From positions 39,680,001 to 39,744,000 of the forward strand of contig JAGIQG010000005.1 of NCBI GenBank assembly GCA_024679065.1: DNA of 64,000 nucleotides, written 5' to 3'. Both the position numbers and the translations under genes were made by a program. The notes beneath the pieces were generated by a model, which was not told where the DNA came from, searched no databases, and saw only the letters and a program-made list of their open reading frames with translations. Source of the DNA: Sphyrna mokarran. Taxonomy: Eukaryota. Positions 2,237 to 56,192 of the stretch are shown here, in pieces (the stretch's first letter is position 1; each line of letters starts with the position of its first letter).

Positions 2237-2471
2237 TAAAGTTCTAACTTTATAAATAATGTTTTCCCACCTCCGGTACTAGATGTCAAATTGACATGAG
2301 TGCTGATCTTTCAATTTTTTAAACCAGTCAACATATTTACAAGCAGTGATAATGGAACTTCCCTACCTAGAAAATCCAGAAACCATCCAGTACAATGAAA
2401 TAACTATGCAACTCCCACAACAAAATTAATTGGACTTTCAATATATGCACAAACAGAACAGCACACCATAC

Positions 2472-2795
2472 CTTGAGAAGAAATATTGCGCAATCAATAT
2501 GCCCATAGAACATACTTCTGTGCAGAGCTGTCCATCCAGATTCCTTATCCTTCACGGAATGATCAGCCCCTTTCTTTTCAAGAAGCCAATTCAAAACAGA
2601 TTTTTTACCACAAGACGCAGCCATGTGTAGAACTGTTCTGCCAAAACTATCCTTCAGGGAAGCCGCATTGTAGCAGTAAGATGAAAGGAAGGCTTTACTC
2701 TGACCTTCAGTTCCCTTAGTCATCACTGAAATCATGTCAAGGGCATGTTGCAGAGAGCGGCACTTTGGAGTGCAGTCAGCTGTCACTGAATTCAT
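2472..2795 (-). CDS. IBTK: IBTK first coding exon portion (108 aa, N-terminus and ankyrin repeats)
   Basis: MNSVTADCTPKCRSLQHALDMISVMTKG...GRTVLHMAASCGK...DKESGWTALHRSMFYGHIDC is the recognisable IBTK N-terminus. Donor AAG|gtatgg at 2472/2471; ATG context aggATG has A at -3. Confidence 0.95.
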
Positions 2796-3225
2796 CCTTT
2801 CTCCACTTTCGAGATCTTCAAAAGACTTAAATATCTGTTGAAGGCTATGGAACTAAGTTGCTTGGCAGCTGTACTATCAAAGTGCTAGATTTGTGCTTGT
2901 GTTACAAAAACACTGCACTCTAGCAATCTTCTAGCCTTCGTTACATTAGTTTAGTACATGAGCGCAGTGCTGGTTTAGTTCAAAGAACAGTTCTTTCAAG
3001 GTATAAAATGCTATCTATAATATATGGCACTTTGTTGCAATTAAATAGACAAAAATAGAAATTTAATTATAACATTTTTGTGGAAAATAGAAACTTGTAA
3101 ACTTTCAGTCAAAACACATCCATCACACTCTCCTGAATGTCATTTCTTCGAAGTCAGCCACCAGGGGAAGGGAAGCTCCCCCACTACTCTGTTCTTGCTT
3201 AAGCCTCCATAATTGTAAGTGCCAC
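2796..3225 (-). other. IBTK: IBTK exon 2 5' UTR with short uORFs and a stem-loop
   Basis: A strong acceptor ttcttttttcag|gtggc lies at 3226/3225 on the minus strand. Weaker AG alternatives near 3010-3014 and 2835 cannot be excluded. Confidence 0.65.
2879..2959 (-). promoter_or_regulatory. Translational control element: uORF M-Y-stop (2951-2959), uORF M-stop (2941-2946), then stem-loop (core 2883-2925)
   Basis: The minus strand reads ATG TAC TAA acta ATG TAA cgaaggctagaagat TGCTAGA GTGC a GTGTT tttgt AACAC aa GCAC aaa TCTAGCA, giving three helices of 7, 4 and 5 bp. Confidence 0.7.
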
Positions 3226-5159: not shown

Positions 5160-5660
5160 ACTAGAATAAAAGATCAGTACGGCACAGAAGCAGGCCCTGC
5201 GGCCCACCAAGCATGCACTAATTACGTTGCCCCGTGTAGACTAATTACCAGTATACCTCTATTCCCTGCATGTTCATGTGGCCACATAGTAAGAAGTCTG
5301 ACAAAACGAGGTTTAAGTCCAACCGATTTATTTGATAGTAAACTCACAAGCTTTCTGTCTTTGTCAGGTGAGTCATGTTCATGTGTCTATCCAGATAAGT
5401 CTTCAAAGTCACTAACGTGTCTGCCTCAACCACCTCACTTGGCAGTGGAGGCCAGGCCAGGCAACACACCTCCCTCTTCCTCCCACCACACCCCACCCCC
5501 ACCCCATCTCTCTCTCTCACACACACATACAGTTAAAAATCTTCCCCCACACATCTCTACTGAACCTTCCCCCCCACCTTACATTGAACTTGTAATTGTC
5601 TTTTCTACCCTCAGAAAAAGCTTCCAACTATTTACCTTATCTATGCCCCTCATCATTTCA
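5160..5660 (-). mobile_element. CR1 LINE 3' fragment interrupted by a Penelope-derived insert
   Basis: LPSEVVEADTLVTLKTYLDRHMN is the CR1 C-terminus, and a CR1-type tail lies near 5160-5210. Confidence 0.7.
5281..5373 (-). mobile_element. Penelope pLTR 3'-end fragment (93 bp)
   Basis: It is homologous to 44225-44315 (aagaagtctgacaa...tccaaccgatttatttgatagtaaact) and is flanked by the 12-bp direct repeat catgttcatgtg at 5269-5280 and 5374-5385. Confidence 0.8.
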
Positions 5661-9150: not shown

Positions 9151-10052
9151 TAGAAATAGAACATAGAACATAGAACAATACAGCACAGAACAGGCCCTTC
9201 GGCCTTCGATGTTGTGCCGACCAAAATAAAAAGCAATGCCCCTCCAAACTAAACCATTCCCTTCTCTTCCATATACTTATCAACTAACCTCTTAAACGCC
9301 ACCAAACTTGGCGCATCTACAACAGCTGCAGGCAGGGCATTCCACTCCCTAATCACTCTTTGAGTAAAGAACCTACCTCTGATATCCGTCCTATAACTCA
9401 TACCCCTTAATTTAAAGTTGTGTCCCCTCGTGCTAGCTTTCTCCATCCTAGGAAAAAGGCTATCACTGTCCACCCTATCTAAACCTCTAATCATCTTATA
9501 TGCTTCAATAAGATCCCCTCTTAGCCGCCTCCTTTCTAACGAAAACAACCTCAAATCCCTCAACCTCTCTTCATAAGACCTGCCCTCCATACCAGGCAAC
9601 ATCCTGGTAAACCTCCTCTGTACCCTCTCCAATGCCTCCACATCTTTCTTATAATGTGGGGACCAGAACTGCACACAATACTCCAAGTGCGGCCGCACTA
9701 GAGTTTTGTACAGCTGCAACATGATGCTGCGGCTCCTAAATTCAATCCCCCTACCAATAAAAGCTAAGACTCCATATGCCTTCTTAACAACTTTATCCAC
9801 TTGACTGCCTACTTTCAGGGATCTATTGACACATACACCAAGATCCTTCTGTTCCTCAACACTATTAAGAGCCCTACCATTAGCCCTATACTCTACACAT
9901 TTATTGTTCCTGCCAAAGTGCATTACCTCACACTTTTCCACATTAAACTCCATTTGCCACCTCTCGGCCCAGCTCTGCAACTTGTCCAAGTCACTCTGTA
10001 AACTAAAACACCCCTCTTCACTATCTACCACACCACCAACTTTAGTATCTGT
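9151..10052 (-). mobile_element. Young 5'-truncated CR1 LINE with an intact ORF2 C-terminal frame
   Basis: Uninterrupted DTKVGG...WAERWQMEFNVEKC...LVRPHLEYCVQFWSP...TRGHNFKL, with an (atagaac)n tail at 9156-9178. Confidence 0.93.
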
Positions 10053-10259
10053 ACCAACTGTAATGCTACTGAAATCATTCCATTCAACACTCAGATGACG
10101 ATTACAGTACATATCACCTACAACAACTCTAAGTTACTTTAACAAAATGTAATAGTTTTTTCTATCATTGCAAAAGGTAAGAGCCATAATGCTATGGAGA
10201 ATTTTAGCATACCCAGGTGACACACCATTTTGACTTTGCCATATAATCAGCAATTTTTC

Positions 10260-21079: not shown

Positions 21080-21880
21080 AGGTATTATTTCTTGCATGCT
21101 ATATAGATAAAACATACTATATATAGGGAAGGAAAGGAGGCAGTGCCGAATGTAGCATTACGGTCATAACTAGGGTGTAGAGAAAAATCAACTTAATGTG
21201 AGGTAGATGCATTCAAAAGGCTGATGGCAACAACGAGGAAGCTATTTGAGTTAGTTGGTATGTGTCCTCAGGCTTTTATAATTTCTTCCTGATGGATGAA
21301 GGTGGAAGAGAGTACGTCTGGGGTGCATCGGGTCCTTGATTATACAGGCTGCTTTTCCGAAACAGCAGGAAGTGTAGATAGTGGCAATGACCGGGAGACT
21401 GGTTTGAGTGATGCACTGGGCTTCGTTCATGATCTTTTATAGTTTCTTGCGGTCTTGGACAGAACAGGTACCATTCCAAACTGTGATACAACCAGAAAGA
21501 ATGCTTTCAATGGTGCATCTGTAGAAGTTGGTGAAAGTTGTGGCAGACATGCCAAATTTGTTTAGTCTCCTGAGAAAATAGAGGCGTCGATGAGCTTTTT
21601 TATCTGTAGCATCTACAGGAAGGAGCCAGGACAGGCTGTTAGTGGTCCAGACATCTAAAAATCTGAAACTCTTGACCACGTCTACTTCATCCCCATTGAT
21701 GTAGACATGGGTGTGCCCTCCACTACACTTCCTGAAGTAAATGACTATCTCCTTTGTTTTGTTGATATTGAGATACAGATTATTGTCTTTGCCCAGTTCA
21801 CCAGATCTTCTCTCTTTCCTGTACTGTGTCTCATCACTGTTTAAGATCTGATCCAGAATGGTAGTGTCATCAGTAAACTT
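21080..21880 (-). mobile_element. Rex1/Babar-like LINE 3' portion
   Basis: FKFTDDTTI...LNINKTKEIVIYFRK...RLYFLRRL...FYRCTIESILSGCITVW are Rex1-type RT C-terminal motifs. Confidence 0.85.
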
Positions 21881-22050
21881 AAAAATCCAGGTACTACCTA
21901 AGAGTTTAGGGGTCTCTGTCTCCACCACCAACTCAAGCAGTAAATTCCAGACACCCACCACCTTTGGCACAAAAAAAGTTCTTCCTCTTGTCCCCTCTAC
22001 ACCTACTATGAGCTACCTTGAATCTGTGCTCCCTGGTTCTAGAATTCTCC

Positions 22051-22194
22051 GTGATGTAGAGATGCCGGCATTGGACTGGGGTAAACTCAGTAAGAGGTCT
22101 GACAACACCAATTTTAAATCCAACCGATTTATTTGATAGTAAACTTGCTAGCTTTCGGTCTTTGTAGCCTTTGTCAGGCTACAAATTGGTGTTA
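22051..22194 (-). mobile_element. Penelope pLTR-end mini-insert with tail, mutated hammerhead and 11-bp inverted end
   Basis: A 13-bp TSD tctagaattctcc lies at 22038-22050 and 22195-22207. The insert is homologous to 44187-44312, and its terminal aaattggtgtt is the inverse of the internal aacaccaattt. Confidence 0.85.
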
Positions 22195-29199: not shown

Positions 29200-29880
29200 C
29201 GAAAGATCAGGAATTACGGGAGGGGGGGGGGGGGGCGGGGGGGGGAGAGTTCACGCCGTTTATCGCTGTCACATTTCATTCTGGCCCTGGACGGTCACCT
29301 TTAGCTTTGCCCTTGCTCACAACAATCAAAGGCTTCCTCTATCCTGAGCCCTGACGTGGCACAAAAAAAAAACAACCAACACTCTCCTTGCACAGCCAAA
29401 GCAGCAGGACTGGAGCCTGGCCAGGAGCCTGGAGCCTCGCCTCGCCTGGCCTGGCCTGGCCTAGCCTGGTATGACCCGCCCCCCCCCTCCGGGGCCACAT
29501 CACAGTAAACTGCGAGGCCCCGGGAGACCGGCTGCCGGCAGGGAACAGGAGGGGGTTTCCAGGACGAGGGTGGGGAGGGTGCCTCCCTCCCGTCCCCAGT
29601 CGGGGCCGCTCCTTACCTCTCGCTAGTTGAAACGGACGCTGTAGAGGGCGGTGACAGTGCGCTGGACTGGGGATGGGAATGAGCTGCCGGGCACCATGAT
29701 CACTAACTCGGCTCCTTCTGCCTCTCCGCTCCGACTGGACCCAACAGCCCCTCCGCCCCCCACCCCCAACTTCGCCTGCTCCCATTGGCCCGCACGCTCA
29801 GCATTCCCAATGCTGATTGGACGGAGGTTTCCTAGCCCGCCCCCTCCCCTCTGTTTCCCTGTGTGCAGGAGGAGAGAACC
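29200..29880 (-). promoter_or_regulatory. IBTK: CpG-island promoter of IBTK
   Basis: There is a sharp GC/CpG enrichment, CCAAT boxes (ATTGG at 29784-29788 and 29816-29820, CCAAT at 29807-29811), a GC box at 29836-29843 and no TATA box. It lies upstream of IBTK on the minus strand. Confidence 0.8.
29617..29745 (-). other. IBTK: Putative IBTK non-coding exon 1 (TSS approximate)
   Basis: A consensus donor GAG|gtaagg at 29617/29616 lies just downstream of the CCAAT/GC boxes. Confidence 0.7.
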
Positions 29881-31645
29881 TGTCAGTCTGAGTGAGTCAG
29901 TCTGAATGTGTGTCTGTCTCAATCTGTCTGTCTGAATGTGAACATCTCAATCTATCAGTCTGAATGTGTGTCTGTCTGAATGTGAACATCTAAATCTGTC
30001 AGTCTGAATGTGTGTCTGTCTGAATTGAACATCTAATTGTCAGTCTGAATGTGTGTCTGTCTGTGTGAACATCCGAATGTGTCAGTCTGTCTGAATGTAT
30101 GTCTGTCTCATTCTATCAGTCTTAAATCTGTCAGTATCTCTGAATGTGTGTCTGCCTCAACCTGTCTGAATGTATCAGTTTGAATGTGTGTCTGTTTCCA
30201 TTGGTCAATCTGAATGTGTGTCTGTCCCAATCTGTCCGTCTGAATGTGTCAGTCTGTGTCAATCTGCCTCTGTGAATGTGTCAGTCTGAATGTGTGTCTC
30301 AATCTGTCAGGCTGAATGTGTCAGTCTGTCTGTGTGTCTATCTCAATTTGTCTGTCTCAATCTGTTTCAATTTGTCTGTCTTAGTGTAAGTCTGAATGTG
30401 TCAGTCTGTCTGAATGTGTGTCTGTCTCAATCTGACTGTCTGACTATGTCAGTCTGTCTAAATGTGTGTCTGTATCAATCTGTCTGTCTGAATGTCACTC
30501 TGTCTGAATGTCACCCTGTGTATGTATGTCTGTCTGAATGTGTCTGTCAGAATGTGTTTGTTTGAATGTGTTAGTCTGAATGTGTCAGTCTGAATGTGTT
30601 TCTGTCTGAATGTGTCAGTCTATTTGAATGTGTCTCTGTCTCAATCTGTCTGTCTAAATGAAAAGTTAGAGAGAGAGAGATAGTCAGAGAGCCAACCAAA
30701 CAGACAGACAGATAGTCAAACAGTAAGAGAGAGAGAGAGAGTGAAATTCAGGCACAGAACCAAACAACCAAACAGTCAGACATCCAGTCAAATAGAATGG
30801 ATAGACAGTCAAACAGTCAGATAGAGTTAATCGGTCAGTTAGACAGTGAAATGGACAGTCAGTCAGACTGAGTCAAACGCTCAGACAGTTATATAGAAAC
30901 AGTCAGTTAAGGAGAGAAACAAACATACAATCAAAGAGAGAGAGAGAAAAAAAATCAATCAGACAGATGGCCAGTCAAATAAACAGTCAGACAGCTAATC
31001 AACCCGACAGTCAAACACAGTTAGACAACATTGGTCGGGTAAACCAATTAAACATGTAGACATTCAGTTAGTCAGACACAGGAAAGAGTCATGTAGACCG
31101 TCAGTTAGACAGACAGTCAAACAGACAGTCAGATAGATAGACATCAAGTATCTATGACAATCGAGCAGATACTCAAAAAGTCAAACATATGTACAGAAAG
31201 TCAGACAGCTACTCAGATAGTCACCATGGAGACATTCAAACAGGCATGCATTCAAAAAGACATTCAAACACGCAAAAAATCTTTCAAACAGACATTCAAG
31301 TAGTCAGTCAGACAGAGGCAGGAAACAGTCAGCCAAGCTGTAAAATGCGGTCAGGCAGACAATCAATCAGTCAGTTAGGTAGACAGTCAGATAGATAGTC
31401 AAACCATCAAATAGGTAGCCAGTCAAGCAGATGTACAGATAACAAATATTCAGATAATCATCAGACAGACAGACACATTCAAACAGACAGGTGGGCTTTT
31501 AAGCATAGCAGACTTCCAAATAGACACAACTTTCAGACAGACTTTCAAACAGACAGACAGAGGCAGGAAACAGTCAGACACATAGCAAAATATAGTTAGG
31601 CAGACAGCCAGTCAGTTAAATTCCAGACAGTCAAATAGTCAGGCA
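29880..31645. repeat. Degenerate low-complexity satellite: TCTG/TGAATGTG-rich to ~30660, then CAGA/CAGT-rich
   Basis: Units such as gtctgaatgtgtgtctgt repeat, followed by cagacagtca units. The motif cagacagaggcaggaaacagtcag is duplicated at ~31310 and ~31554. Confidence 0.9.
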
Positions 31646-39086: not shown

Positions 39087-40769
39087 TGATGGAACAGCTT
39101 GGCTAGGGAAAGTTAGTTCTTGAGCGTTCTAGCTGGAATAGTGTCAGAAGCCATATCCTTTGATGTATCCAGTGCATTCAGCCATTCCTTGATAACACAT
39201 GGAGCAAATCAAATTGGTTGAAGACTGGCTACTGTGATGCTGGGGACCTGAGGAAATTTGCAGGATGGATTATCCACTCAGCATTTCTGGCTGAAGATTA
39301 TTGCAAATGCATCAGCCTTAGGCTTTGACATAATTGAGGATGGAATTATTCATGGAACATCCACCTCCTATAATTGTCCACCATCAGTTGCCCAAGAATG
39401 GATGTAATAGGACTGCAGAGCTTGGTTGTGGAATTGCTTAGTTCTGCCTATAACATTACAGGTTCCACTGTTTAGCATGCACGTGTTATAGTTTCATCAG
39501 TATTTGATTCCAGATTTATTGTGGGACAAGTGGAAGACGTCTGTAATCCAGATATTAATTCTGTCAATAATATGTATTTTGTAAATATCTTGAGCAGTCT
39601 CACTCTTTAATATTAAGAAATGGTTAATTATATCATCTTAAGTAGCTTATCCAAGAAATATCATGATTTTATGTCATAATTTTGTTTTTGACAAGAAAAG
39701 GTCAACTCAGATATTCAGTGGTTTATATAAATGCCAGTTGCCTGTTAGTATTGTTCATGTCATTTGAATTGGTTGATATTATAGTTACCCTAGGATGTCA
39801 TTGATCACTTTCACTGGAGTCATCTTAATGCTGTGGGCAATTTAGAAATCGCATTTGTGGGGTATAAGCAGAGTATTCTGGGGAGCTGGATGCAGACCTG
39901 TATGACAATGATATATTCAAAGACCTTTGATGAAGGATGGATTGAAGGCAAGATGGTGAACTAATTCAAGCAAACAAAATAATATTTATTGCAAACATTT
40001 TCGATTGATTCTTTGGCAAGGAGTTAATGTGAAGGTGTTCAGGATTTATTTGGTAGCTGTTGATTAACAGCCCCTTACAAGGTTTATTGGGAGATCAATT
40101 CCAGTGTTATTGAATTTTAATTTTCCCTTCTGCATGTCATTAATCAAGCCTTCTCCATTAGTTTGTTTTCCAAATCTCTTTTAAAATTGTTGCACCTCAT
40201 TGTCTTCAGAAATAGCAGTTTCTGTACTCATCATTCTGCCCTTAATTTCCTTGCAAAAGTATTGGAACATGTCGTCTTACGGTTCCACTTCTAGCTTCCA
40301 CGACTCCCTTCTCAAATCCCACACATGTGGGCGGGGAGAGGTGTGGTGATTCTCCCAAAAGTGCCGAATTAGTGGAAATTGTTCAACTTCTCACTCGAAT
40401 TTCCCCACTCTGTGCATTGCAGAGGTCACAATCGTAAATATCATTAAAAACCAATGGGGTGGGGCCTATTTGTGCCAAAGAGCCTGAAACCAACTGGATG
40501 AGCAGTAACCCATGCATGCACACATCACTGAGAGGTTGCTGAAAATACCTTCTAGCATCCAGATCATTGCCACCCAACGTCCACAGACATCACTGGCCTC
40601 ATTGCTGGCCCCCACAACCTTCCTACAGACATCACTGGCCCAACAACCCCTCCACATTTGTTATCAACAGGCCCTTGACCGGCTACACTCACTGCACCCG
40701 CACTCTTCTAATAAGCCCAAGCTGTATATAAGCTGCAGGAATGGACACACAGCCAGTGTCACCACAAAG

Positions 40770-41400
40770 ATGCCTGCGCAAAAACCAGCTCTCAGATTTT
40801 CAGAGGCCAAGAAGGAGCACCTGCTGAATGCTGTGGAAGAGAGGCATGATCGAGTGTTCCCCAGCCAAGGCCCTCACCCAAGAGGTATATCTGCCATGGC
40901 ATTGGGGGAGGAGGTGGCAGAAGCAGTGAATGCCAGGAGCCTGACACTACAGCCTGGCAGGCGGTATCACAAAAAACTGTACGATCTTCTGGGAGAAGCA
41001 AGAGTGAGTGAACGTCCCCCTTGGAACCCTGCACATGTTTGGCACAGATCACCAACCCTGCTTAGACACCTGAAGGGTATGCAACAAGTGACCATTCCCC
41101 CAGAATCAGATTCAAACTCCTTCCCCTCACCCTTCAACGAGCACCTTTCGTGGTGACTGATTTCCCCAAAAACATCAGCCCGAGACACAGGCACGCATTA
41201 CACACCATGCACTGCAATATGTTAATGCTTGCAATCCACCTTATGTTCCCACAGGAAAAGAATATCCACAACATACGGGGACAACACAGACTGTTGGTGG
41301 TGTACCTGATCAGCCATATGGAGTAGCATGTCATGGAGTTGGCAGGAGATGATGGGTCATCCCAAGTGGTCACAACAGCCAGGTCAGTGTCCACATGCAA
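40770..41400 (+). pseudogene. Harbinger Myb/SANT-like DNA-binding gene, exon 40770-41003 and degenerate exon 41255-41400
   Basis: MPAQKPALRFSEAKKEHLLNAVEERHDRVFP...EEVAEAVNA...KKLYDL is trihelix/Myb-like. The donor AGA|gtgagt is at 41004, the acceptor cccacag|GAA at 41255, a donor gtgagc at 41401 and a further acceptor tttccag at 41530. Confidence 0.75.
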
Positions 41401-41408
41401 GTGAGCAG

Positions 41409-41474
41409 AAGCGCGCCCTCAACCTAGGTCCTTCTCAAAGTAAGCGCGCCCTCAACCTAGGTCCTCCTCAAAGT
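41409..41474. repeat. 33-bp tandem duplication
   Basis: aagcgcgccctcaacctaggtcct(t/c)ctcaaagt occurs twice. Confidence 0.9.
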
Positions 41475-42304
41475 AAAAAGCGTGGAATGTTTTGTCTCCT
41501 TCCCCCCTAACGTATGTTTTTTTTTCCAGCTCTGGATACATAAGAACCCGGCCCTTTGGGTGTTGCTGTCACTCCTGCTGCTCTGGAGCAAACTGCCCAC
41601 GACATCCTGAATAATACCTTGAAGAGAGGCACTGAGGAATCCTGTGAGGACAGCACCATTAAAGAGGCACCGTCATGTACCACACAACCCACCAATCACC
41701 CACGGTGAGTACCTTTTGTATTGAGGCCACTGGGTCACAAACTAGTGAGCACACCAGGTGGAGGCGGGCATATCCAAGGGCTCAGACACACAGAGGCCTG
41801 CCCAAGGCCAGGATTCAACTGCCCTTAAGCCAGCTGCTGGGCCTCTGGGATTGTTCCTCCCAAGGCTGGTGTAGATGCACCACAAGATCCAGGGATTGGG
41901 GAACGGCTGTCAGCAACTGTGCTGCAACTGCAAGGCTGTTTGGAGAACAATTGCAGGAGGTGGTGCTGATACAGTGTGAAACCCAGGCCAACACTGCAAG
42001 AGTGGTGACCACAGTGGAAAGTCTGCCTTGGGTCTGTCCTTATGGGTGAAAGGGTCCAGGCCATCCTGGAGACTCAACAGGCCACGGGCTAGTGTATTTC
42101 CAGCGTCCAGGAGACACAGCGTTTGATGGCCATGAGTGTTGGGAGCATGGGGGAAACACTGCTGGCCATGGCTGGGACTCTTGCTGTGAGTGGCTGTGAG
42201 TCTCAATGAATTAGCCCAGACTACTTGCTGAGGGTCTCCAGAGCCTGTTTTGCTCATAGATTGCTGTAGCGGAGGGGCTCCAGAGCTTGGCCCAGTCTCA
42301 GAGG

Positions 42305-42535
42305 AAGTAGCCTGACAACACCAGGTTTAAATCCAACCGATTTATTTGATAATAAACTCACAAGCTTTCGACTCTATGGCCTTCGTCAGGCGAATGACGT
42401 TTTCACATTCGCCTGACGAAGGCCATAGAGTCGAAAGCTTGCGAGTTTACTATCAAATAAATCAGTTGGATTTAAACTTGGTGTTGTCAGACTACTTACT
42501 GTGTTTACCCCAGTCCAACGCCGGCATCTCTACAT
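42305..42535 (+). mobile_element. Palindromic Penelope mini-element with a hammerhead motif on each strand
   Basis: Arms 42305-42396 and 42406-42497 are inverted, followed by a ~38-nt tail. A 13-bp TSD ccagtctcagagg lies at 42292-42304 and 42536-42548. Confidence 0.92.
42407..42446 (+). ncRNA. Minimal type I hammerhead ribozyme motif (mirror copy on - at ~42356-42395)
   Basis: attcgc CTGACGA a GGC catagaGTC GAAA gc TT gcgagt has intact core boxes, a 6-bp stem I, a 3-bp stem II and a palindromic AAGCTT stem III. Confidence 0.75.
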
Positions 42536-44274
42536 CCAGTCTCAGAGGGCCAGGGCTGAGGAAACATGGGGCTGGCACATCTAGGCCTCCAGGGCTGGCA
42601 GAGTCAGGTGACGCTGAAGCTTTTGGAGCTCAGTCCAGCTACCCTAGCATCCTATGGAGTGCTCTGTGGGCCTCTGGTTACCCCAAGGGAGGAGGAAGGG
42701 CTTGAACCCATACCAGGGTTTTCCACCCAGGAGATCACAGATGTCCTAAGACCTGATTCCTCCTTTCCTCACATCAGGGCATCTCAAACTCAGTGAGATG
42801 AACTGGGTGGCATCAAAACAGTGCCATCCACAAGTCAGCCGGAGCCCTCCAGGTCCCAGCCACCCATTCATAAGGAACGGCAAGTCAACAGGGACAATGT
42901 AGCAATGGACCCACTCAGGGGCCTGCTTTATAAAGGACTTGGATACGAGCTCTACCTAATGAGTTAATTACTAATCTCTAGGGAGCTCTATTCAATAAGT
43001 CTTACAGGGAGGTCAATCAGTGATTCTCCATGTAAATCCTGGGCATTATCACATTTGTATTCTTAATTCTGTCCTGATGAGTGTGTTACAAGTCAGGTCG
43101 GATACTTCAAACTGGACACCTCCATCTCTGATGTACATTCTGGAGTAGCACTGAGAAGAAGCAGTAGACAGTACGAAGTTAGAAAGTTGTAGTTCACTAT
43201 AGAGGGTACGGGTGAAGATCAGCATTAGTCAGGGTTTGGTAATTATTTATGTTAAGAACACAATAAACTGTTAATTGCACATCACTCTATGACTAATGTG
43301 TCACTGATTCCCTTCCCACTGCCAACCTCTACCCAAACAGCTCAGTGTTCCTAACTCCCAAACATAAAGGTGCTGTTTGCTGAGCTTTGCAGAGTCAGCC
43401 ACACGTTTCAGAAAGCCTGCTCTACCTTCCCCAGGTGCAAGTGCCCTCCACCTCCTTGGCCAAAAAACATGTGACCCCAACCTTTACAGTATGTGGGCCA
43501 GGAAAGCAGCGTGCATTCAGAGTACAGATAAGAGTCAGACTTGAGTTGTACCACAGACAGGAACCCTGTGGCACAGCAACGAGTCATCATCATTCTCAAG
43601 CCTTCAACCATTGCCAGTCCAGGTACATTAACAGATTTGCATATTTCTTGGAGGGATAGGGTGGTGGGATGACAGAAACAGGAGAAGCATAAATTGGTGG
43701 TTTGAGGCCCAAATCAGTTTGGACTTGGAATAGCGGCTGTGCTTGCTCCTGGGTGTGGTGGATATGTGTTGTTTGCACCCCCTCTCATTGCACAGCACCA
43801 CCTAGGTGAAGCCATCTGCAATCAAGGCATCCCTCGCTTCCTTTTCCTGCCGGACACCTGCCATCGCCGCCCACCCTCTTTCCTCCAGCTCTTCGTATGG
43901 TGGGGCCTCTCCCTCTCGCTGCTTGTCCTCCTCCTCCTCCTCCTCCTCCTCCTCCTGTGCCAGCTAGTCTCCCTGTTGCTAGGCAATGTTGTGCAAAGTG
44001 TGGCAAATGGTAACGATGCGTGAAGCACATACAGGGTCAGATTGGAGAGCCCCCCAGAGTGGTCCAAGCAGCAGAACCGCATCTTCAGCAGGCCCAATGC
44101 ACCATTCAATAATGGACTGGGCGGCTGATGGGCCTCATTGGAGCGCATCACTGCCTTGGTCTCCGGCCTCTGCACAGGTATCATCATGATGTAGAGATGC
44201 CGGCGTTGGACTGGAGTAAACTCAGTAAAGTTTTACAACACCAATTTTAAATCCAACCAATTTATTTGATAGTA

Positions 44275-44316
44275 AATCCGCAAGCTTTCGACGCTATGCG
44301 CCTTCATCAGGCAAAT
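44275..44316 (-). ncRNA. Minimal hammerhead ribozyme motif in the Penelope pLTR
   Basis: The minus strand reads atttgc CTGATGA a GGCGC ata GCGTC GAAA gc TT gcggat. Confidence 0.75.
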
Positions 44317-46212
44317 GCAGTGTTCTGATCTGCAGAGGCACTCATATCCACACAGACAGTTACAGATTGCTGATTAGAATGCGAATCCTTACATCTAACC
44401 TGCTATTCAAGTGTTAAAGTGGCTAACAATGTGTGTGAAGGAAATCCTAAGCATTGGTTAGAGAATTGTGTATTTTCTCCAGACAGCACATTAAGTGAGG
44501 TTTTTTGCTAATCCAGGCAAGTTACGGGGGTTACAGATAGTGTGACATGAAGCCAAGATCCCTGTTAAGACCGTCCTCATGTGTGCGGAACTTGGCAATC
44601 AGTCTCTGCTCAGCGACTCTGCGCTATCGTGTGTCACGAAGGCCCCCTTGAAGAACATTTACCCGCAGGTCGGAGGCCGAATGCCCATGACTGCTGAAGT
44701 GTTCGCCCACAGGAAGGGAACTGTTTTGCCTGGTGATTGTTGAGCTATGCTCATTCATCCGCTGTCGTAGTGTCTGCATGGTCTCCCCAATGTACCATGC
44801 TTCGGGACATCCTTTCTTGCAACGTATTAGGTAGACAACGTTGGCCAAGTTGCAAGAGTATGTACCGTGTACCTGGTGAATAGTATCCTCACGTTTGATG
44901 ATGTCGTCCATGTCTATGATCTGGCATGTCTTGCAGAGGTTGCTGTGGCAGGGTTGTGTGGTATTGTGGTCACCGTTCTCCTGAAGGTTGGGTAGTTTGC
45001 TGCGAACAATGATCTGTTTAAGGTTGTGCGATTGTCTGAAAGCAAGAAGTGGGGGGGGTGGGGATGGCCCTAGCGAGATGTTCATCGTCATCAATGATAT
45101 GTTGAAGACTCCGGAGAAGATGTCGTAGCTTCTCCGCTACGGGGAAGTACTGGACAACAAAGGGTACTCTGTCCACCGTGTCCCATGTTCGTCTTCTGAG
45201 GAGATCAGTGCGGTTTATCGTTGTGGCACGTTGGAACTGTCGATCGATGAGTCAAGCGCCATATCCTGTTCTCACGAGTGCATCCTTCAGTGTCTGGAGG
45301 TGTCTGTCATGATCCTCCTCATCTGAGCAAATTCTGTGTATACGGAGGGCTTGTCCATAGGAAATGGCTTCTTTAACGTGTCTAGGGTGGAAGCTGGAGA
45401 AGTGGAGCATTGTGAGGTTGTCTGTCGGTTTTCGGTACAGTGAGGTGCTGAGGTGACCGTCCTTGATGGAGATGAGTGTGTCCAAGAATGCAACTGATTC
45501 TGGAGAATAGTCCATGGTGAGTCTGATGGTGGGATGGAACTTGTTGATATCATCATATAGTTGTTTCAATGATTGTTCACCATGAGTCCAAAGGAAAAAG
45601 ATGTCATCAGTGTATCTAGTATATAACCTTGGTTGAAGATCTCGTGTAGTGAAGAAGTCTTGTTCGAACCTGTGCATGAAGATGTTGGCATACTGAGGTG
45701 CAAATTTGGCCCCCATGGCTGTTCCATGTATCTGGATGAAAAGCTGATTGTTGAAGGTGAAGACATTGTGGTCCAAGATGAAGCGGATGATTTGTAAAAT
45801 TGCATCCGGAAACTGACAGTTGTTGGCATTGAGTACTGAGGCAGTTGCAGCAATACCATCGTCGTGGGGGATGTTGGTGTAGAGCGCCAAGACATCCATT
45901 GTGACAAGGAGTGTCCCTGGTTCAACTGCTCCATGCGTGTTGAGTTTCTGTAGGAAACTTCTGTAGGGATCTTGGCTTCATGTCACACTATCTGTAACCC
46001 CCCGTAACTTGCCTGGATTAGCAAAAAATCTCACTTACTGTGCTGTCTGGAGAAAATACACAATTCTCTAACCAATGCTCAGGATTCCCTTCACACACAT
46101 TGTTAGCCACTTTAACACTTGAATAGCAGGTTAGATGTAAGGATTTGCATTCTAATCAGCAATCTGTAACTGTCTGTGTGGATAAGAGTGCCTCTGCAGA
46201 TCAGAACACTGC

Positions 46213-46253
46213 ATTTGCCTGACGAAGGCGCATAGTGTCGAAAGCTCGCGGAT
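46213..46253 (+). ncRNA. Minimal hammerhead ribozyme motif in the inverted pLTR
   Basis: atttgc CTGACGA a GGCGC ata GTGTC GAAA gc TC gcggat has a UC cleavage site after 46247 and a 6-bp stem I. Confidence 0.78.
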
Positions 46254-47106
46254 TTACTATCAAATAAATTGGTTGGATTTAAAATTGGTGTTGTAAAACT
46301 TTACCAGGTATCATCAGCCATGACATTATCGGATAATCTTTGCCACCCAGTAGCCATTCCTGGGAGCCTGGGCTGGTTGTCAAACAGCCCAGGGATGTCT
46401 GACAGTGTGAGCATAAAGTGTCATGGACACTCTCTGGATGGCACGCATTGATCTGCATGATCTTGAGTCCATGGTCAGAGACAATTTGGACATTCAGGGA
46501 GAGGAACCCCTTCCTGTTCAAAAATTGCTGCGGATCTGCATAGGGGCCCCACAATGCGAGTGTCCCATCCACTGCTCCTTACACATTCGGGATCCTGGCG
46601 ATGGATACAAAACCGAGAGCGCGGGCCTCCTGCTGTGCACGGCCACATCAAAATTAATGAACTGCTCTGCCCGAGCATATAGGGCATCCATGACCTGACA
46701 CACAAGTCTGTATACGGAGGCCTGGGAGATCGTAGCTAGGCTGCCACTGGGAGTCTGGAATGATCCAGAGGCATAGAAAAGCAGGGCAGCTGTCACCTTC
46801 ACGCCCCCGCAGGTGTCAGATATGAGAGCATCCCACAAATGTGTTGCATTGTGCCTTGGACAGGGGTAGCCGGCGACGGCACATCTCCTCCGAGAGGGCC
46901 TCAAAGGAATTGCGAGGCCTGTACACCTTGCCATCAGCACCCTCTGCTTTCTGTGCAGCCTCTCGAGAGGCTTCCTACCTCCTGGAACCTCAGCAGCAGC
47001 CTTCTGCCTGCCTTCCTGAACGTTTAGTGCTGGCTGCTCTTGTGGTGGTCTCTTCACACCTGCCATCTTCTGAGATGCCACTCCTCAGCCCCTGCTGCCA
47101 CCAACA

Positions 47107-49010
47107 TGACGTGGAGATGCCGGCGTTGGACTGGGGTAAGCACGATAAGAAGTCTCACAACACCAAGTTAAAGTCTCTGTGTTGGAGATTTTTACTGCCT
47201 CCCGAAGATACACAAGGTCCCATCATACTGGGCAATGGAACCCTGTGCGAGAACCTGTACATCAAGGGCATCCTGAAACCCATTGTACAAAGAACCCCCA
47301 GCTTTTGTCGTTTCCTACAGAAACTCAGCACACGTGGAACAGTTGAACCAAGAACACTCCTCGTCACAATGGATGTCTCGGCACTCTACACCAGCAACCC
47401 CACGCCAATGACATTGCAGAAACTACCTCAATACTCAACGCTGACAACTGCCAGTTTCCAAATGCAATTTTACAACTCATATACTTCTTCCTGGACCACT
47501 ATGTCTTCACCTTCAACAACTAATTCTTCATCCAGACACACAGAACAGCCATGGGGACCAAATTTGCAATTCAACACGCCAACATCTTCATGCACAGGCT
47601 TGAACAAGACCTCTTCGCTGCACAGGACCTTCAACTGATGCTATACACTAGATACATCGATGACATTTCCTTCCTTTGGACTCATGGCGAATAATGACTG
47701 AAACAACATCATCAACAAGTTCCATCCCACCATCAGACTCACCATGGACTACTCTGCAATCTTGGACACACGCATCTCCATTAAGGATGGTCACCTCAGC
47801 TGTACCGCAAGCCCACAAATAACTTCACGATGCTCCACTTCTCCAGCTTCCACCCCAAACACATTAAAGAAGCCATCCCCTATGGACAAGCCCTCCTGTA
47901 TACATAGGATCTGCCCAGATGAGGAGGATCACAACAGACACCTCCAAATACTGAAAGATGCTCTCATAAAAATAGGAAATGGCACTTGACTCATTGATCA
48001 ACAGTTCCAATGCGCCACAGCAAAAACCGCACCAACCTCCTCAGAAGACTAGCACAGGACACAGTGGACAGAATACCCTTTGTCGTCCAGTACTTTCCCG
48101 GAGTGGAGAAGCTACAACATCTTTTCCGGAGCCTTCAATATGTCATTGATGAAGAGGAACATCTCACCAAGGCCATCCCCACACTCCCACTTCTTGCCTT
48201 CAAACAAACGCACAATCTCAAACAGACCATTGTCCACAGCAAGCTACCCAGCCTTCAGGAGAACAGTTACTATACACCACATTACCCTGCCACAGCAAGC
48301 TCTGCAACACATGCCGAATCATTATTACGGATGCCATCATCACACATGAGAACACCATCCACCAGGTACACGGTGCATACTCTTGCAACTGTCCAATGTT
48401 GTCTACCTGATATGCTGCAGGAAAGGATGTCCCAAAGCATAGCAAATTGGGGAGACCATGTATGTGCTACGACAACAGATGAATGAACACCACTCAACAA
48501 TCACCAGGCAGGATTGTTCTCTTCCTGTTGGGAAACACTTCAGCGGTCATGGGCCTCTGATCTTCAGATAACCGTTCTCCAAGGTGGCCTTCATGACACA
48601 CAACAATGAAGAGTCGCTGAGCAGAGACTGATAGCCAAGTTCTGCGCACATGAGGACGGCCTCAACCAGGATCTTGGGTTCATGTCACACTATCTGTAAC
48701 CACCACGACTTGCCTGCACTTGCAAAATCTTATAACTGTCCTGTCAGGAGACAATACATATCTATTTAATCTGTGCTTAAAGCTCTCCCGCTCACATTGT
48801 CCGTGTCTTTAAGACTTGATTAGCTGTAAAGACTCACATTCCAATCATTATTCATGTAAGTTGAATTTGTGTCTTTACATGTCTTGTTTGTGATCAGAAC
48901 TCCCAGTCACCTAACGAAGGACAGCACTCCAAAAGCTAATGGCATTTACTACTCAATAAACCTGTTAGACTTTGAAAAAAAGGTTGAACTTGAACCTACT
49001 GTTGTGAGAT
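47107..49010 (+). mobile_element. Older Penelope-like element: short tail and pLTR end in - orientation, long RT/GIY-YIG arm in + orientation
   Basis: LLVTMDVSALYT, yTRYIDDI-encoding DNA and PFVVQYFPG are present, with a decayed hammerhead at ~48910. An imperfect TSD caccaa(c/t)atg lies at 47099-47108 and 49011-49020. Confidence 0.88.
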
Positions 49011-51544: not shown

Positions 51545-52640
51545 CAAAGAACAAAACCATTCAGCCCATTACATCCGTGCCAGCTCTTTGAAAGTCTCTT
51601 GGGTCTGTTTTGTCCCCATAGCCATGTAATTTTCCACTTTAAGAATTTATCCAATTCGCTTTTATAAGGTATATTAAATCTGCTTCCAGTATTCAGGCAG
51701 TGTGTTCCAGATCATAACACTGTGTTATGTCTTATGTTGTTCCTTTTTTGTGTGTGTCACCTTAAATCCTCTGGTTACTGACCACATGTTCCTTTTTAGT
51801 GAGCGCCCCTATCAAATCTCCCCTTAACCTTTGCACTTCGGGAAGACCAACCCATGATTTTCCAGTTTCCACATATGAGTGAAGTCCCTGATCCCTGGTC
51901 CAGTCCTAGCGAGTGCCTTCTGCACTCTCTCTAAAGCCATGGCATTTATCCTGAAGTGTGTGCTGCCCACAATTGAACACAATACTCCAGGCAGTGCCTA
52001 ACCTGCATTTTCTAAAGGCTGAGCGTACCCTCCTTGCTTTTGTTGTACTCTTTACCTCTGCTTATAAAACAAAAAATCCCGTATATATTTTGAAAGAATT
52101 CTCAACGTGTCTGCTTCCCACCTTCAGGGGTCTGTGAGCACACATCGTCTCCATATCTCTCTGCTTTCGCATTTTTTTTCAAACTGTCCCATTTTATTTT
52201 CTGTTGTCTTTCCTTAATCTCGCTGTCAAAATGTATCACATCGCAGTGTTGTGTGTGAAGTTTCAGTTTTACCAATCTGTCTATTCCTACCCTCCTCCTC
52301 GTTAACCACATTTTTGAGTCTTAAGTCATCTACAAAGTTTGAAATTGTGCCCTTCGCACTCAGATCGGGGCCATTAACAGAAGAGCGGGTGATGCTCACA
52401 CTGCCACCCCCACCGCCCCCCCCCCTCCCCCGGAACAGCCACTGTACGCTCTCCACCAGTCTGAACAGATTCACCATGTCACTCTGCTTTCTGTCCTTTA
52501 AGAATTTAGCAACACCAATTTTAAAACCAACCGATTCGGTTGGATTTAAAATTGGTGTTGCTAAATTTTTACTGAGTTCTTACTACCCCAGTCCAACGCC
52601 GGCATCTCTACATTCTGTCCTTTAGCCAGTTTGGTATCCC
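51545..52640 (-). mobile_element. Old CR1 LINE fragment
   Basis: ISNFVDDLRL and CDVIHF remnants are present, with a CR1 tail near 51545-51590. Confidence 0.7.
52501..52612 (+). mobile_element. 112-bp hairpin Penelope mini-insert (35-bp arms plus tail, no hammerhead)
   Basis: agaatttagcaacaccaattttaaaaccaaccgat pairs with tcggttggatttaaaattggtgttgctaaattttt, followed by the tail ccccagtccaacgccggcatctctaca. A 12-bp TSD ttctgtccttta lies at 52489-52500 and 52613-52624. Confidence 0.9.
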
Positions 52641-52822: not shown

Positions 52823-52866
52823 ATGTACTCCCCGCCATCACCAATTGATGATGGCGGGGAGCACAT
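52823..52866. repeat. 44-bp near-perfect palindrome
   Basis: atgtactccccgccatcaccaattgatgatggcggggagcacat has 22-bp arms with 2 mismatches. Confidence 0.9.
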
Positions 52867-54399: not shown

Positions 54400-55061
54400 C
54401 CCATGGGAACAGGAGGTGGTGTTAGCGAGCAGCAAGCAGCCCCTGCTCGGTGTAGTCCTGCCCATCACTCTGTGTGTGTGTGTGTGTGTGAGTGGAGCTG
54501 GCGGGCAGAGCCCAGCCACTCACTTTCTCTCACACTCACAGCGCCTGTGGGGAAGAACACTTTGAAAGTGTGGAAAGTTAGATCGAGGAGCCTTGGGGAA
54601 GGAGGAGGAGAAGGAGCAGGCTTGTGGGCGGGCTGCTCCGGGACGCCGATTGGAGTTTGGTTCCTGTGTTCTGATATATTCCTCTGCGAGATCTGAGACA
54701 GAGAGAGAGAGGAAAAGTGTGTAACCCGAGACCCCTCCATTCTCATCCTCCTCCTCCTCATCATCATCATCACCCGGAAGAGCTGGAAACAACGAGAAGG
54801 AGAGAGAAACTTGCAGCTCACTCTCAGACAACACAGAGAAAAGTGAAAGCTCCAAGTTGTTCTGGTTTGCAGAGAGTGAGGAGGGGGGGGGGGAGGAATT
54901 GATGGATTGAAGTGAGAGGTGAAGAAAGGATCCGGATTCTCAGCTTCCTCTTCTATTTCCAGTTACTCTCTCTCTCCCTTGCCGGCACCCACCCCCCCCC
55001 CCCCCCCCCTCTTTCCCAGCGAGGGTGGAGAGGAGGTCAAGCTTGCAAACTCCAGACCGAC
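54400..55061 (+). promoter_or_regulatory. TPBG: TPBG promoter and 5' UTR region
   Basis: The region is GC-enriched and free of transposons, with a GC box at ~54626, ATTGG at ~54649, and (GT)n and (CCT)n/(CAT)n tracts. Candidate acceptors are ctatttccag (54962) and ctttcccag (55019). Confidence 0.5.
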
Positions 55062-56192
55062 ATGCCTGGCCGGGGGCTACCTGCGAGTTTGAGCCGCTGG
55101 CCCGGGAGCTGGGCACTGCTGGCACTGCTGCTGCCCTGGGCGCGGGCGCTCAGCCCGTGCCCCAGCTCGTGCGAGTGCTCGGAGCCGGTCAAGACGGTGA
55201 AGTGCGTGAACAAGGAGCTGAGCGACATCCCGCCGGGCATCCCGGCCAGCGTGCGGACCCTCTTCATCACCGGCAACAACATCTCCAGCCTGCAGAGCGG
55301 CGCGTTCGGCCCGTCCCTGCGGCAGCTGCTGACCCTCAGCCTGAGCGGCAACCGGATCCGGGCGGTGGGCTCGCGGGTCTTCGCCTCCATGCCGAGCCTG
55401 CAGCAGCTCGACCTCAGCAACAACCGCATCTGGCGGCTGCAGGCGGCCGCCTTCGGCTCGGCGCCGCTCCGCCTGCGGGAGCTCGACCTGAGCGGCGCGC
55501 TGCTGAACGGCTCGGTGGCCGAGCAGCTGGCCGAGTGCCTGCAGAGCGGCGGCCTGGCCAACCTGCAGCGCCTGCGGCTGGCCGAGAACCAGCTGGTCTA
55601 CCTGCCGGCGCGCACCTTCTCCCGCCTGGCCAAGCTGCGGCACCTGGAGCTGGCCAACAACTCGCTGCTGGAGCTCGGCGGCGCCTTCCGCCACCTGAGC
55701 CTGCACACGCTCGACCTCAGCTCCAACTCGCTCAGGCGGCTCGCCAACAGCACCCTGGCCGAGCTCGGCTCGCAGCCCAACATCAGCATCCGGCTCCGGG
55801 ACAACCCCTTCGCCTGCGACTGCGGCATCGAGCCGCTGCTGGCCTGGCTGCGGGGCAGCGGCAGGGTGGTGGACCGCGAGAGCCTGCTGTGCGCCTCGCC
55901 CGAGAGCCTCAGGAACACGCCCGTCCTCCAGCTGCAGCCCTCCGAGCTGAAGTGCGCCGCGCCGGGGGACATGGAGAGGGTGCTGCAGACTTCTTACGTC
56001 TTCCTGGGCATCGTCCTGGCCCTGATCGGGGTCATCTTCATGTTTGTCCTCTACCTGAACAGGAAAGGCATCAAAAAGTGGCTTTACAATGTCAGGGATG
56101 CTTGCCGAGACCACATGGAAGGCTATCACTACAGATACGAGATTAACTCGGACCCCAGATTGACAAACCTTAGCTCCAATTCGGATGCGTGA
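55062..56192 (+). CDS. TPBG: Trophoblast glycoprotein (5T4/WAIF1), LRR single-pass membrane protein, 376 aa
   Basis: The protein has a signal peptide, LRRNT (CPSSCEC..C), LRRs, LRRCT (NPFACDC), TM (YVFLGIVLALIGVIFMFVLYL) and the tail RDACRDHMEGYHYRYEINSDPRLTNLSSNSDA, nearly identical to human TPBG. The first in-frame ATG is at 55062 and the gene neighbours IBTK as in human. Confidence 0.96.
   Translation: MPGRGLPASLSRWPGSWALLALLLPWARALSPCPSSCECSEPVKTVKCVNKELSDIPPGIPASVRTLFITGNNISSLQSGAFGPSLRQLLTLSLSGNRIRAVGSRVFASMPSLQQLDLSNNRIWRLQAAAFGSAPLRLRELDLSGALLNGSVAEQLAECLQSGGLANLQRLRLAENQLVYLPARTFSRLAKLRHLELANNSLLELGGAFRHLSLHTLDLSSNSLRRLANSTLAELGSQPNISIRLRDNPFACDCGIEPLLAWLRGSGRVVDRESLLCASPESLRNTPVLQLQPSELKCAAPGDMERVLQTSYVFLGIVLALIGVIFMFVLYLNRKGIKKWLYNVRDACRDHMEGYHYRYEINSDPRLTNLSSNSDA

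Follow-up and report, generated by a model that had tools for sequence, protein, structure and literature searches.

A 231-bp palindrome flanked by a target-site duplication

Does a palindrome that carries a hammerhead ribozyme motif on each strand represent a small retroelement that copies itself, or is it the remnant of an insertion that ended prematurely? The question is raised by the element at 42305-42535 of a 64-kb window (the whole stretch of DNA analysed here), for which the first-pass annotation had offered both options: a minimal non-autonomous ribozyme retroelement, or an abortive insertion that could produce silencing small RNAs against its parent family. We consider it very probable that an endonuclease-positive (EN+) Penelope-like element (PLE) inserted here in a single event, leaving two truncated copies joined head to head that are now inert.

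The two 92-bp arms (42305-42396 and 42406-42497) pair with 5 mismatches, all of which are transitions, and the inner 36 bp of the duplex are without any mismatch (p about 0.08). The arms enclose a 9-nt loop (42397-42405), and a 38-nt tail (42498-42535, + strand) follows the right arm. Flanking the whole is a 13-bp target-site duplication (TSD), the copies of which (42292-42304 and 42536-42548) are identical at 13/13 positions (chance about 2e-5 over the positions searched); the first base of the right copy fits the family end too. The hairpin fold has an energy of -149.8 kcal/mol (z = -25.9), which 0/200 shuffles equal. The palindromic anatomy described earlier is therefore borne out by pairing and by the exact repeat. 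In addition, a public contig, from a run that is possibly the window's own source, matches 42512-42696 with 0 differences, so the junction between tail, TSD and flank is real. No part of an ORF is present in the 231 bp, and the element thus lacks the RT-EN ORF of its own that would make it an autonomous PLE.

Arms and tail belong to a Penelope-like parent family

A search of the window with the element returned five other sites and two chance rows. The right arm (+ strand), a 5'-truncated pLTR copy, matches 44189-44317 together with the tail at 88.5% identity over 131 nt (E = 8e-43). The left arm (- strand) is a second 5'-truncated pLTR copy, inverted and untailed, with its 3' end at a putative inner start site of reverse transcription; the tail occupies the interval between this site and a putative outer one and stops just before the ATG seen in other copies. 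The matching sequence at 44189-44317 is part of a kin copy 1.7 kb away (44187-46304) with a broken reverse transcriptase (RT) and GIY-YIG ORF (RVT_1, E 7.6e-9; GIY-YIG, E 5e-5). The earlier annotation was right to assign the element to a Penelope pLTR and to describe the hammerhead as minimal and of the dimer type; the module is common to this RT- and GIY-YIG-encoding neighbour.

The neighbour's ORF also contains a CX4CxxC linker that is nearly invariant among its relatives and that conforms to the CX2-5CxxC motif, described in PMC8557442 as common to Neptune and Nematis. By its sequence, the parent is an EN+ PLE with a Neptune/Nematis-type linker, the clade being read from the motif alone, and the neighbouring copy is a sister subfamily. 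Among 116 RT homologues, the best identities across most of the query length (83-88%) belong to shark proteins, with turtles at about 50%, which points to a shark as the probable host. All features expected of an EN+ PLE insertion were found, i.e., kin with an RT plus, at the C terminus, a GIY-YIG domain, an inverted truncated copy at the 5' end, a tail, a TSD and a pLTR hammerhead. A 21-nt pattern from the tail yielded 0 loci in viral contigs and 0 in metagenome contigs; 4 matches in prokaryote genomes each comprise only the 21-22-nt word and are due to chance. Our literature search gave no paper on this shark PLE family (Repbase and Dfam lay outside the comparison) and no confirmation of UCON13/Chompy as palindromic PLE precedents.

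Six insertions of the same module in 64 kb

Including the element, the window holds six insertions of the module, each with its own TSD of 12-13 bp. A single untailed arm at 5281-5373 (- strand; 12-bp TSD) has lost stem II of its hammerhead. The copy at 22051-22194 (- strand), which lies beside or inside a LINE-like repeat, has a tailed arm of about 125 nt with a 12-14-nt inverted stub, a 13-bp TSD and a damaged hammerhead core. In the RT-encoding neighbour at 44187-46304 (- strand; 12-bp TSD), a tailed 1.8-kb arm carries the broken ORF and is joined to a 340-bp inverted untailed arm, with a hammerhead in both pLTRs. An older copy at 47111-49010 joins a short tailed arm (- strand), in head-to-head orientation, to an untailed arm of 1.8 kb (+ strand), and its TSD matches at 10/12 positions. 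Finally, 52501-52612 (+ strand) is a palindrome with 36-bp arms, a tail and a 12-bp TSD. It carries no hammerhead, which shows that the palindrome is independent of the ribozyme motif. A further, 44-bp palindrome at 52823-52866 is unrelated to the pLTR module. The copies at 44187-46304 and 47111-49010 are about 80% alike, lie in opposite orientations, and are both inside a decayed DNA transposon.

All five two-armed insertions are head to head and have a tail on exactly one arm, at five different junctions. Tails measure 36-50 nt (38, 38, 41 and 50 nt, and about 40 nt at 47111), inverted arms range from 12 to 340 bp, and 3/5 of these copies are strongly asymmetric. These values bear on whether the element could be a DNA transposon of the MITE kind, with long inverted repeats at its termini, an idea invited by its being short, palindromic, TSD-flanked and non-coding. 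The 38-nt tail, however, lies outside the repeat on one side only, whereas a MITE would have inverted repeats at both termini; the arm lengths of the kin are far from uniform; and the module ends RT-encoding copies, a link that refutes the reading unless the kinship (E = 8e-43) is due to chance. We regard the chance that the element is a MITE as negligible.

The layout has clear precedents. PLE copies are described in PMC8557442 as generally combining an inverted 5'-truncated copy with a 30-40-bp tail, and the rotifer copies of PMC3846280 have the same inverted-copy layout. The element shares with the EN+ PLE insertions of these two papers the head-to-head inverted copy, the single tail (38 nt here), the TSD, the 5' truncation and the pLTR hammerhead; it differs in that both arms lie inside the pLTR and no ORF is left. 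The TSDs of 12-13 bp are also longer than the 8-10 bp of the rotifer examples. Arms plus tail reproduce the insertion signature published for PLEs and are not a special design. The element has an already-known insertion shape and is unlikely to be a new self-copying ribozyme element; of the two options given above it is the abortive insertion that the signature, the kin copies and the differing junctions support. As one of six such insertions in 64 kb, the single locus matters little. More generally, it shows that palindromes with hammerheads in shark DNA are to be annotated as stumps of PLEs rather than as MITEs, miRNA precursors or new ribozyme elements.

Parent sequence and copy age from public contigs

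Contigs from 4 of 19 listed sequencing runs were aligned to 42397-42696 at 88% likeness. In one of them (X1), 33,415 pieces aligned, with unlike flanks behind one 3' end, and the family is therefore very abundant. Loose ends pile up at 42530-42536 in 4/4 runs (177, 128 and 1140 contigs, the 1140 contigs ending at 42536). Beyond this pile-up the sequences are unlike each other, except for a short consensus starting with ATG, which we infer to be the start of the ORF. The best 24 of 593 loose-end rows have no peak at the inner start; most untailed arms are shorter pieces or fall outside those rows, which makes this absence uninformative. Upstream of 42406, 106 contigs run on into parent sequence, and their consensus, compared by eye, agrees with the loop at 6/9 letters when read from the left arm (7/9 for a listed variant) and at 2/9 when read from the right (p about 0.01). 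The loop (42397-42405, - strand) thus appears to be a decayed continuation of the left arm into the parent.

At 42494 both arms have an A, while T makes up 94% of the depth and at most 6% of the family depth has A; that the arms share this rare letter fits an origin from one source. At the 5 mismatch sites, the right arm has a minority letter at two, and the left arm has a rare letter at two others and a common variant at the last, a split of 2 right to 3 left that amounts to even decay. The element retains 11 CpGs (observed/expected 1.07 versus 0.32 for the window). Together with the perfect inner 36 bp, this indicates that the copy is not very old.

A different possibility is that the PLE enzyme re-inserts transcripts of the complete 231-nt palindrome as single units, i.e., that the palindrome forms a self-propagating non-autonomous family, as the first-pass annotation had proposed. 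Non-autonomous PLE derivatives do exist (10.64898/2026.07.22.740005; PMC8557442), and the element carries a tail with start sites and a clean TSD. However, its junction is found in 0/4 of the other two-armed copies in the window, and the arms decay evenly. In X1 the summed depth of the loop is at most 0.085% of that of the tail, a rough figure given that contig depth is not copy number, and one that position 42406 alone could explain. The 3 opposite-strand joints listed all lie away from this junction, with one contig per run; since the contigs listed lack even the locus's own loop junction, this junction test is insensitive. Tandem units are absent, and an RNA of the palindrome would form a 92-bp duplex over the inner start. 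A self-propagating family is thus very improbable. Two of the opposite-strand joints (42402/42470 and 42437/42479) each occur in two different organisms and may be shared old insertions or recurrent junction sites.

Non-LTR retrozymes provide a related comparison, as they are non-coding, PLE-related, present in a chondrichthyan and equipped with a type I hammerhead (PMC7229834; 10.64898/2026.07.22.740005). Retrozymes as described there consist of units in head-to-tail tandem, an arrangement that permits cleavage as dimers and the formation of circles, with at least two consecutive hammerheads on one strand, whereas the element is head to head and has one sense ribozyme motif per strand.

Hammerhead motifs in the two arms

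A strict minimal-hammerhead descriptor matches only 4 sites in the 64 kb, namely one in each arm and one in each pLTR of the neighbouring copy, compared to an average of 0.03 sites per simulated window (30 simulated sequences). Both motifs in the element are of minimal type I. The plus-strand motif (42407-42446) has a 6-bp stem I (42407-42412/42441-42446), a 3-bp stem II (42421-42432) and a 4-nt palindrome as stem III (42436-42439); its core consists of 42413-42419, an extra A at 42420 and GAAA at 42433-42436. The cut after 42440, predicted earlier, is correctly placed in this motif. In the minus-strand motif (42356-42395, C3 at 42389), stem I has 6 bp and one extra G-U pair and stem II again 3 bp. 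The claim that an intact hammerhead is present in both arms therefore stands as far as the pattern goes; intactness is another matter, with a 3-bp stem II (5 pairs in the neighbouring copy), a 4-nt stem III palindrome and no Rfam hammerhead match. Rfam gave 0 matches over the element at the gathering threshold, and none of the 10 obtained at E<=10 is a hammerhead; a motif that lacks stem III would be expected to escape it. Seven hairpin-shaped Rfam miRNA matches, all far below gathering, are shape matches, and we reject a miRNA precursor.

Across the 6 arms in the window, 49/51 cells of the hammerhead pairing are paired (6-41% in slid controls), with non-significant covariation (50/500 shuffles as high). 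Among 79 related RT loci from metagenomes, several of which are near-duplicates, 18 carry the same minimal hammerhead type on the ORF strand and 1 has it on the other strand, suggesting that the hammerhead is a routine part of the pLTR. One metagenome contig (L069:50-90, - strand) combines a 60%-identical RT fragment with a shark-like minimal hammerhead on the opposite strand, and four other loci (L066, L067, L072 and L077) have U3-A8 core-variant hammerheads beside related RTs, three of them with a longer palindromic stem III. The hammerhead variant of the element (42397-42426) has contig depth in two organisms and none in a third that has the rest of the module; judged by this depth across the three organisms, turnover is more rapid in the ribozyme region than in the tail.

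A U17 at the hammerhead cut makes for slow cleavage. According to one published study CUU sites are cleavable, and no ranking of CUU as a cleavage triplet was found in the literature. The motifs resemble the minimal PLE hammerheads of Cervera and de la Pena 2014 (PMC4209133) in being type I, in the extra base between 9 and 10.1, in G10.1-C11.1 and in the palindromic 15.2-16.2. The differences are a stem II of 3 bp versus 7-8 bp in the schistosome motif and a spacing of only 24 bp between the two cores, versus pairs 100-700 bp apart on opposite strands in that study. No shark hammerhead example was found in the parts of that study compared here; its supplements, and those of the preprint, may list shark motifs.

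Predicted folding, cleavage and small RNA

The first-pass annotation envisaged an RNA that folds either as a hammerhead or as a hairpin that blocks it. Due to the head-to-head geometry, the antisense arm is transcribed before the ribozyme arm whichever strand is read, and a transcript of either strand holds only one sense motif. In equilibrium predictions for the + strand, each of the 11 bases of the core has a pairing probability of 0.999 at every one of 6 chain lengths from completion of the hammerhead onwards, and forcing stems I and II has a predicted cost of 69 (+) or 73 (-) kcal/mol, which argues against a two-state switch. Folding prediction gives stem probabilities near 0 for a single arm plus tail too. 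Single minimal motifs are described as inactive in PMC4209133, and the hammerhead motif of PAc, the Poseidon element of Anolis carolinensis, needed protein (Frangieh et al. 2024, PMC11167929). With the antisense arm coming first, the core occluded and one sense motif per transcript, the ribozyme within the element probably does not work.

The predicted duplex has unbroken runs of 26 and 36 bp on the + strand and, with G-U pairs included, of 19 and 72 bp on the - strand, which suggests that a hairpin RNA, if transcribed, could be diced. Might the locus then matter as a source of small RNAs against its own family? Apart from these long predicted runs, the idea draws on a Drosophila precedent: inverted-repeat Penelope copies able to form dsRNA, as the element is, with siRNAs matching the inverted regions of the rearranged copies (PMC3681739). 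Those siRNAs, however, did not silence efficiently (PMC3681739). Moreover, the arms decay by ordinary transitions with no selection seen, a very large number of similar copies exist besides this one, and the surroundings are repeat DNA in which no coding exon was found, with a trophoblast glycoprotein (TPBG)-like gene starting about 12 kb further downstream. We consider such a role improbable. A run marked 'RNA?' has family contigs and no depth at 42547-42586, and is uninformative on expression.

How the insertion may have arisen

In the scheme that we prefer, the GIY-YIG nuclease would cut both target strands 13 nt apart, and the staggered ends would serve as two primers, each priming its own cDNA on element RNA. 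The tailed cDNA would start at the outer site, next to the ATG of the ORF, and run to -7 of the hammerhead core. The untailed cDNA would start at the inner site, 38 nt upstream of the outer one, and run to -15. Both would stop after 100-130 nt and be joined head to head with one extra base, producing the arms, the loop, the single tail and the TSD. The two hammerheads would be pLTR passengers, locked in the hairpin if the locus were ever transcribed. The insertion of L1 by twin priming is an analogy for the use of two primers. The order of events, the end joining and the inertness of the product are our reconstruction; cleavage and extension of both strands and the two internal starts are transferred from in vitro work on another clade. 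In vitro, the PLE protein of Anolis cleaved both strands of the target and extended them; it initiated reverse transcription internally, at two neighbouring sites with a spacing equal to the tail, and insertion did not depend on hammerhead cleavage (PMC11167929). The element resembles PAc in having two adjacent putative starts that define the tail. It differs in that the shark neighbour has the CX4CxxC linker, which Poseidon, a member of another clade, lacks, and in that hammerhead and starts lie upstream of the ATG here but inside the 5' end of the ORF in PAc (PMC11167929).

That the arms were made by two primings from opposite target strands seems to us reasonably probable. Each arm holds sequence that the other lacks, here (8 loop nt versus the tail) and at 47111-49010 (1.8 kb versus the tail), which favours two primings and is not what copying of one arm from the other would give. 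Some observations weigh against the scheme. The in vitro start sites are the same for both strands (PMC11167929), leaving the one-tail rule without an explanation; the arms are nearly equal in length here and at 52501-52612, as fold-back copying would give; and the loop agrees with the parent at only 6-7/9 letters.

Could the mirror arm of the same dead PLE insertion instead stem from self-primed fold-back copying of a single cDNA, followed by nuclease resolution? PMC3846280 puts forward self-priming, and PMC8557442 a resolution of the tail by the nuclease. The 5' ends of the arms are no more than 8 nt apart here and no more than 2 nt apart at 52501-52612, with the rare variant at 42494 common to both arms. 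Under fold-back, everything in one arm should also be present in the other. This fails weakly here, where the loop reads as part of the untailed arm and that arm could not have served as template for the tail, and clearly at 47111-49010, where the tail is on the short arm and the ORF on the long one; in addition, 3/5 two-armed copies are strongly asymmetric. Fold-back is thus unlikely, and we retain two primings as the preferred origin of the arms. PMC8557442 and PMC11167929 still treat the way in which PLEs form inverted copies and tails as an open question, which gives the class some value: short insertions that are complete preserve, within about 200 bp, the two start sites, the two stop sites and the stagger of the cut.

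Arm 5' ends near the hammerhead

Four of the nine non-ORF arms start at -2 to -15 relative to the first base of the hammerhead core, and 0 start at the cut (+27/28); for two of the nine the position was determined by eye. This cluster has a probability of 0.0004-0.002 for a fixed window of -16 to -1, which was chosen after seeing the data, and 0.03-0.37 for any 14-nt window. The cluster would weakly fit run-off at the 5' end of the RNA. The D. virilis intron ends at helix I (PMC4209133), and no report of 5' ends clustering at a hammerhead was found in the literature. A tentative reading, to which we assign somewhat more doubt than belief, is that the stumps are unresolved PLE integrations in which a dimeric enzyme on one RNA would prime both target strands from a fixed pair of starts and so leave one tail, and in which the short arms would be run-off cDNAs. 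Their 5' ends would then mark the beginning of the template RNA, at 2-15 nt upstream of the core rather than at the hammerhead cut. If true, the PLE mechanism and the dispensability of hammerhead cleavage in vivo would become testable from DNA alone, via the very many shark copies.

Genomic surroundings

The element sits in a GC-richer block with a decayed DDE_Tnp_4 transposase, and its right flank is itself repeated. The block contains a decayed Harbinger-like DNA transposon (43800-47100, - strand, and about 40500-42700; DDE_Tnp_4, E 8e-8 at 46282-46578) and holds three of the six PLE insertions. An N-terminal ORF near 40800-41153, which presumably resembles Myb, has no Pfam match. ORF fragments at 9249-10133 and 21437-22012 (both - strand) are taken to be LINE reverse-transcriptase ends, and self-comparison revealed two diverged tandem arrays (29877-30663 and 31058-31638) that are about 70% alike. 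An ankyrin-repeat coding exon at 2367-2852 (- strand) presumably resembles the first coding exon of IBTK, the neighbour of TPBG in other vertebrates. The TPBG-like gene itself, starting about 12 kb downstream of the element, is a single-exon leucine-rich-repeat gene in a CpG island (54903-56192, + strand), with trophoblast glycoprotein as its best solved match (E 3e-56).
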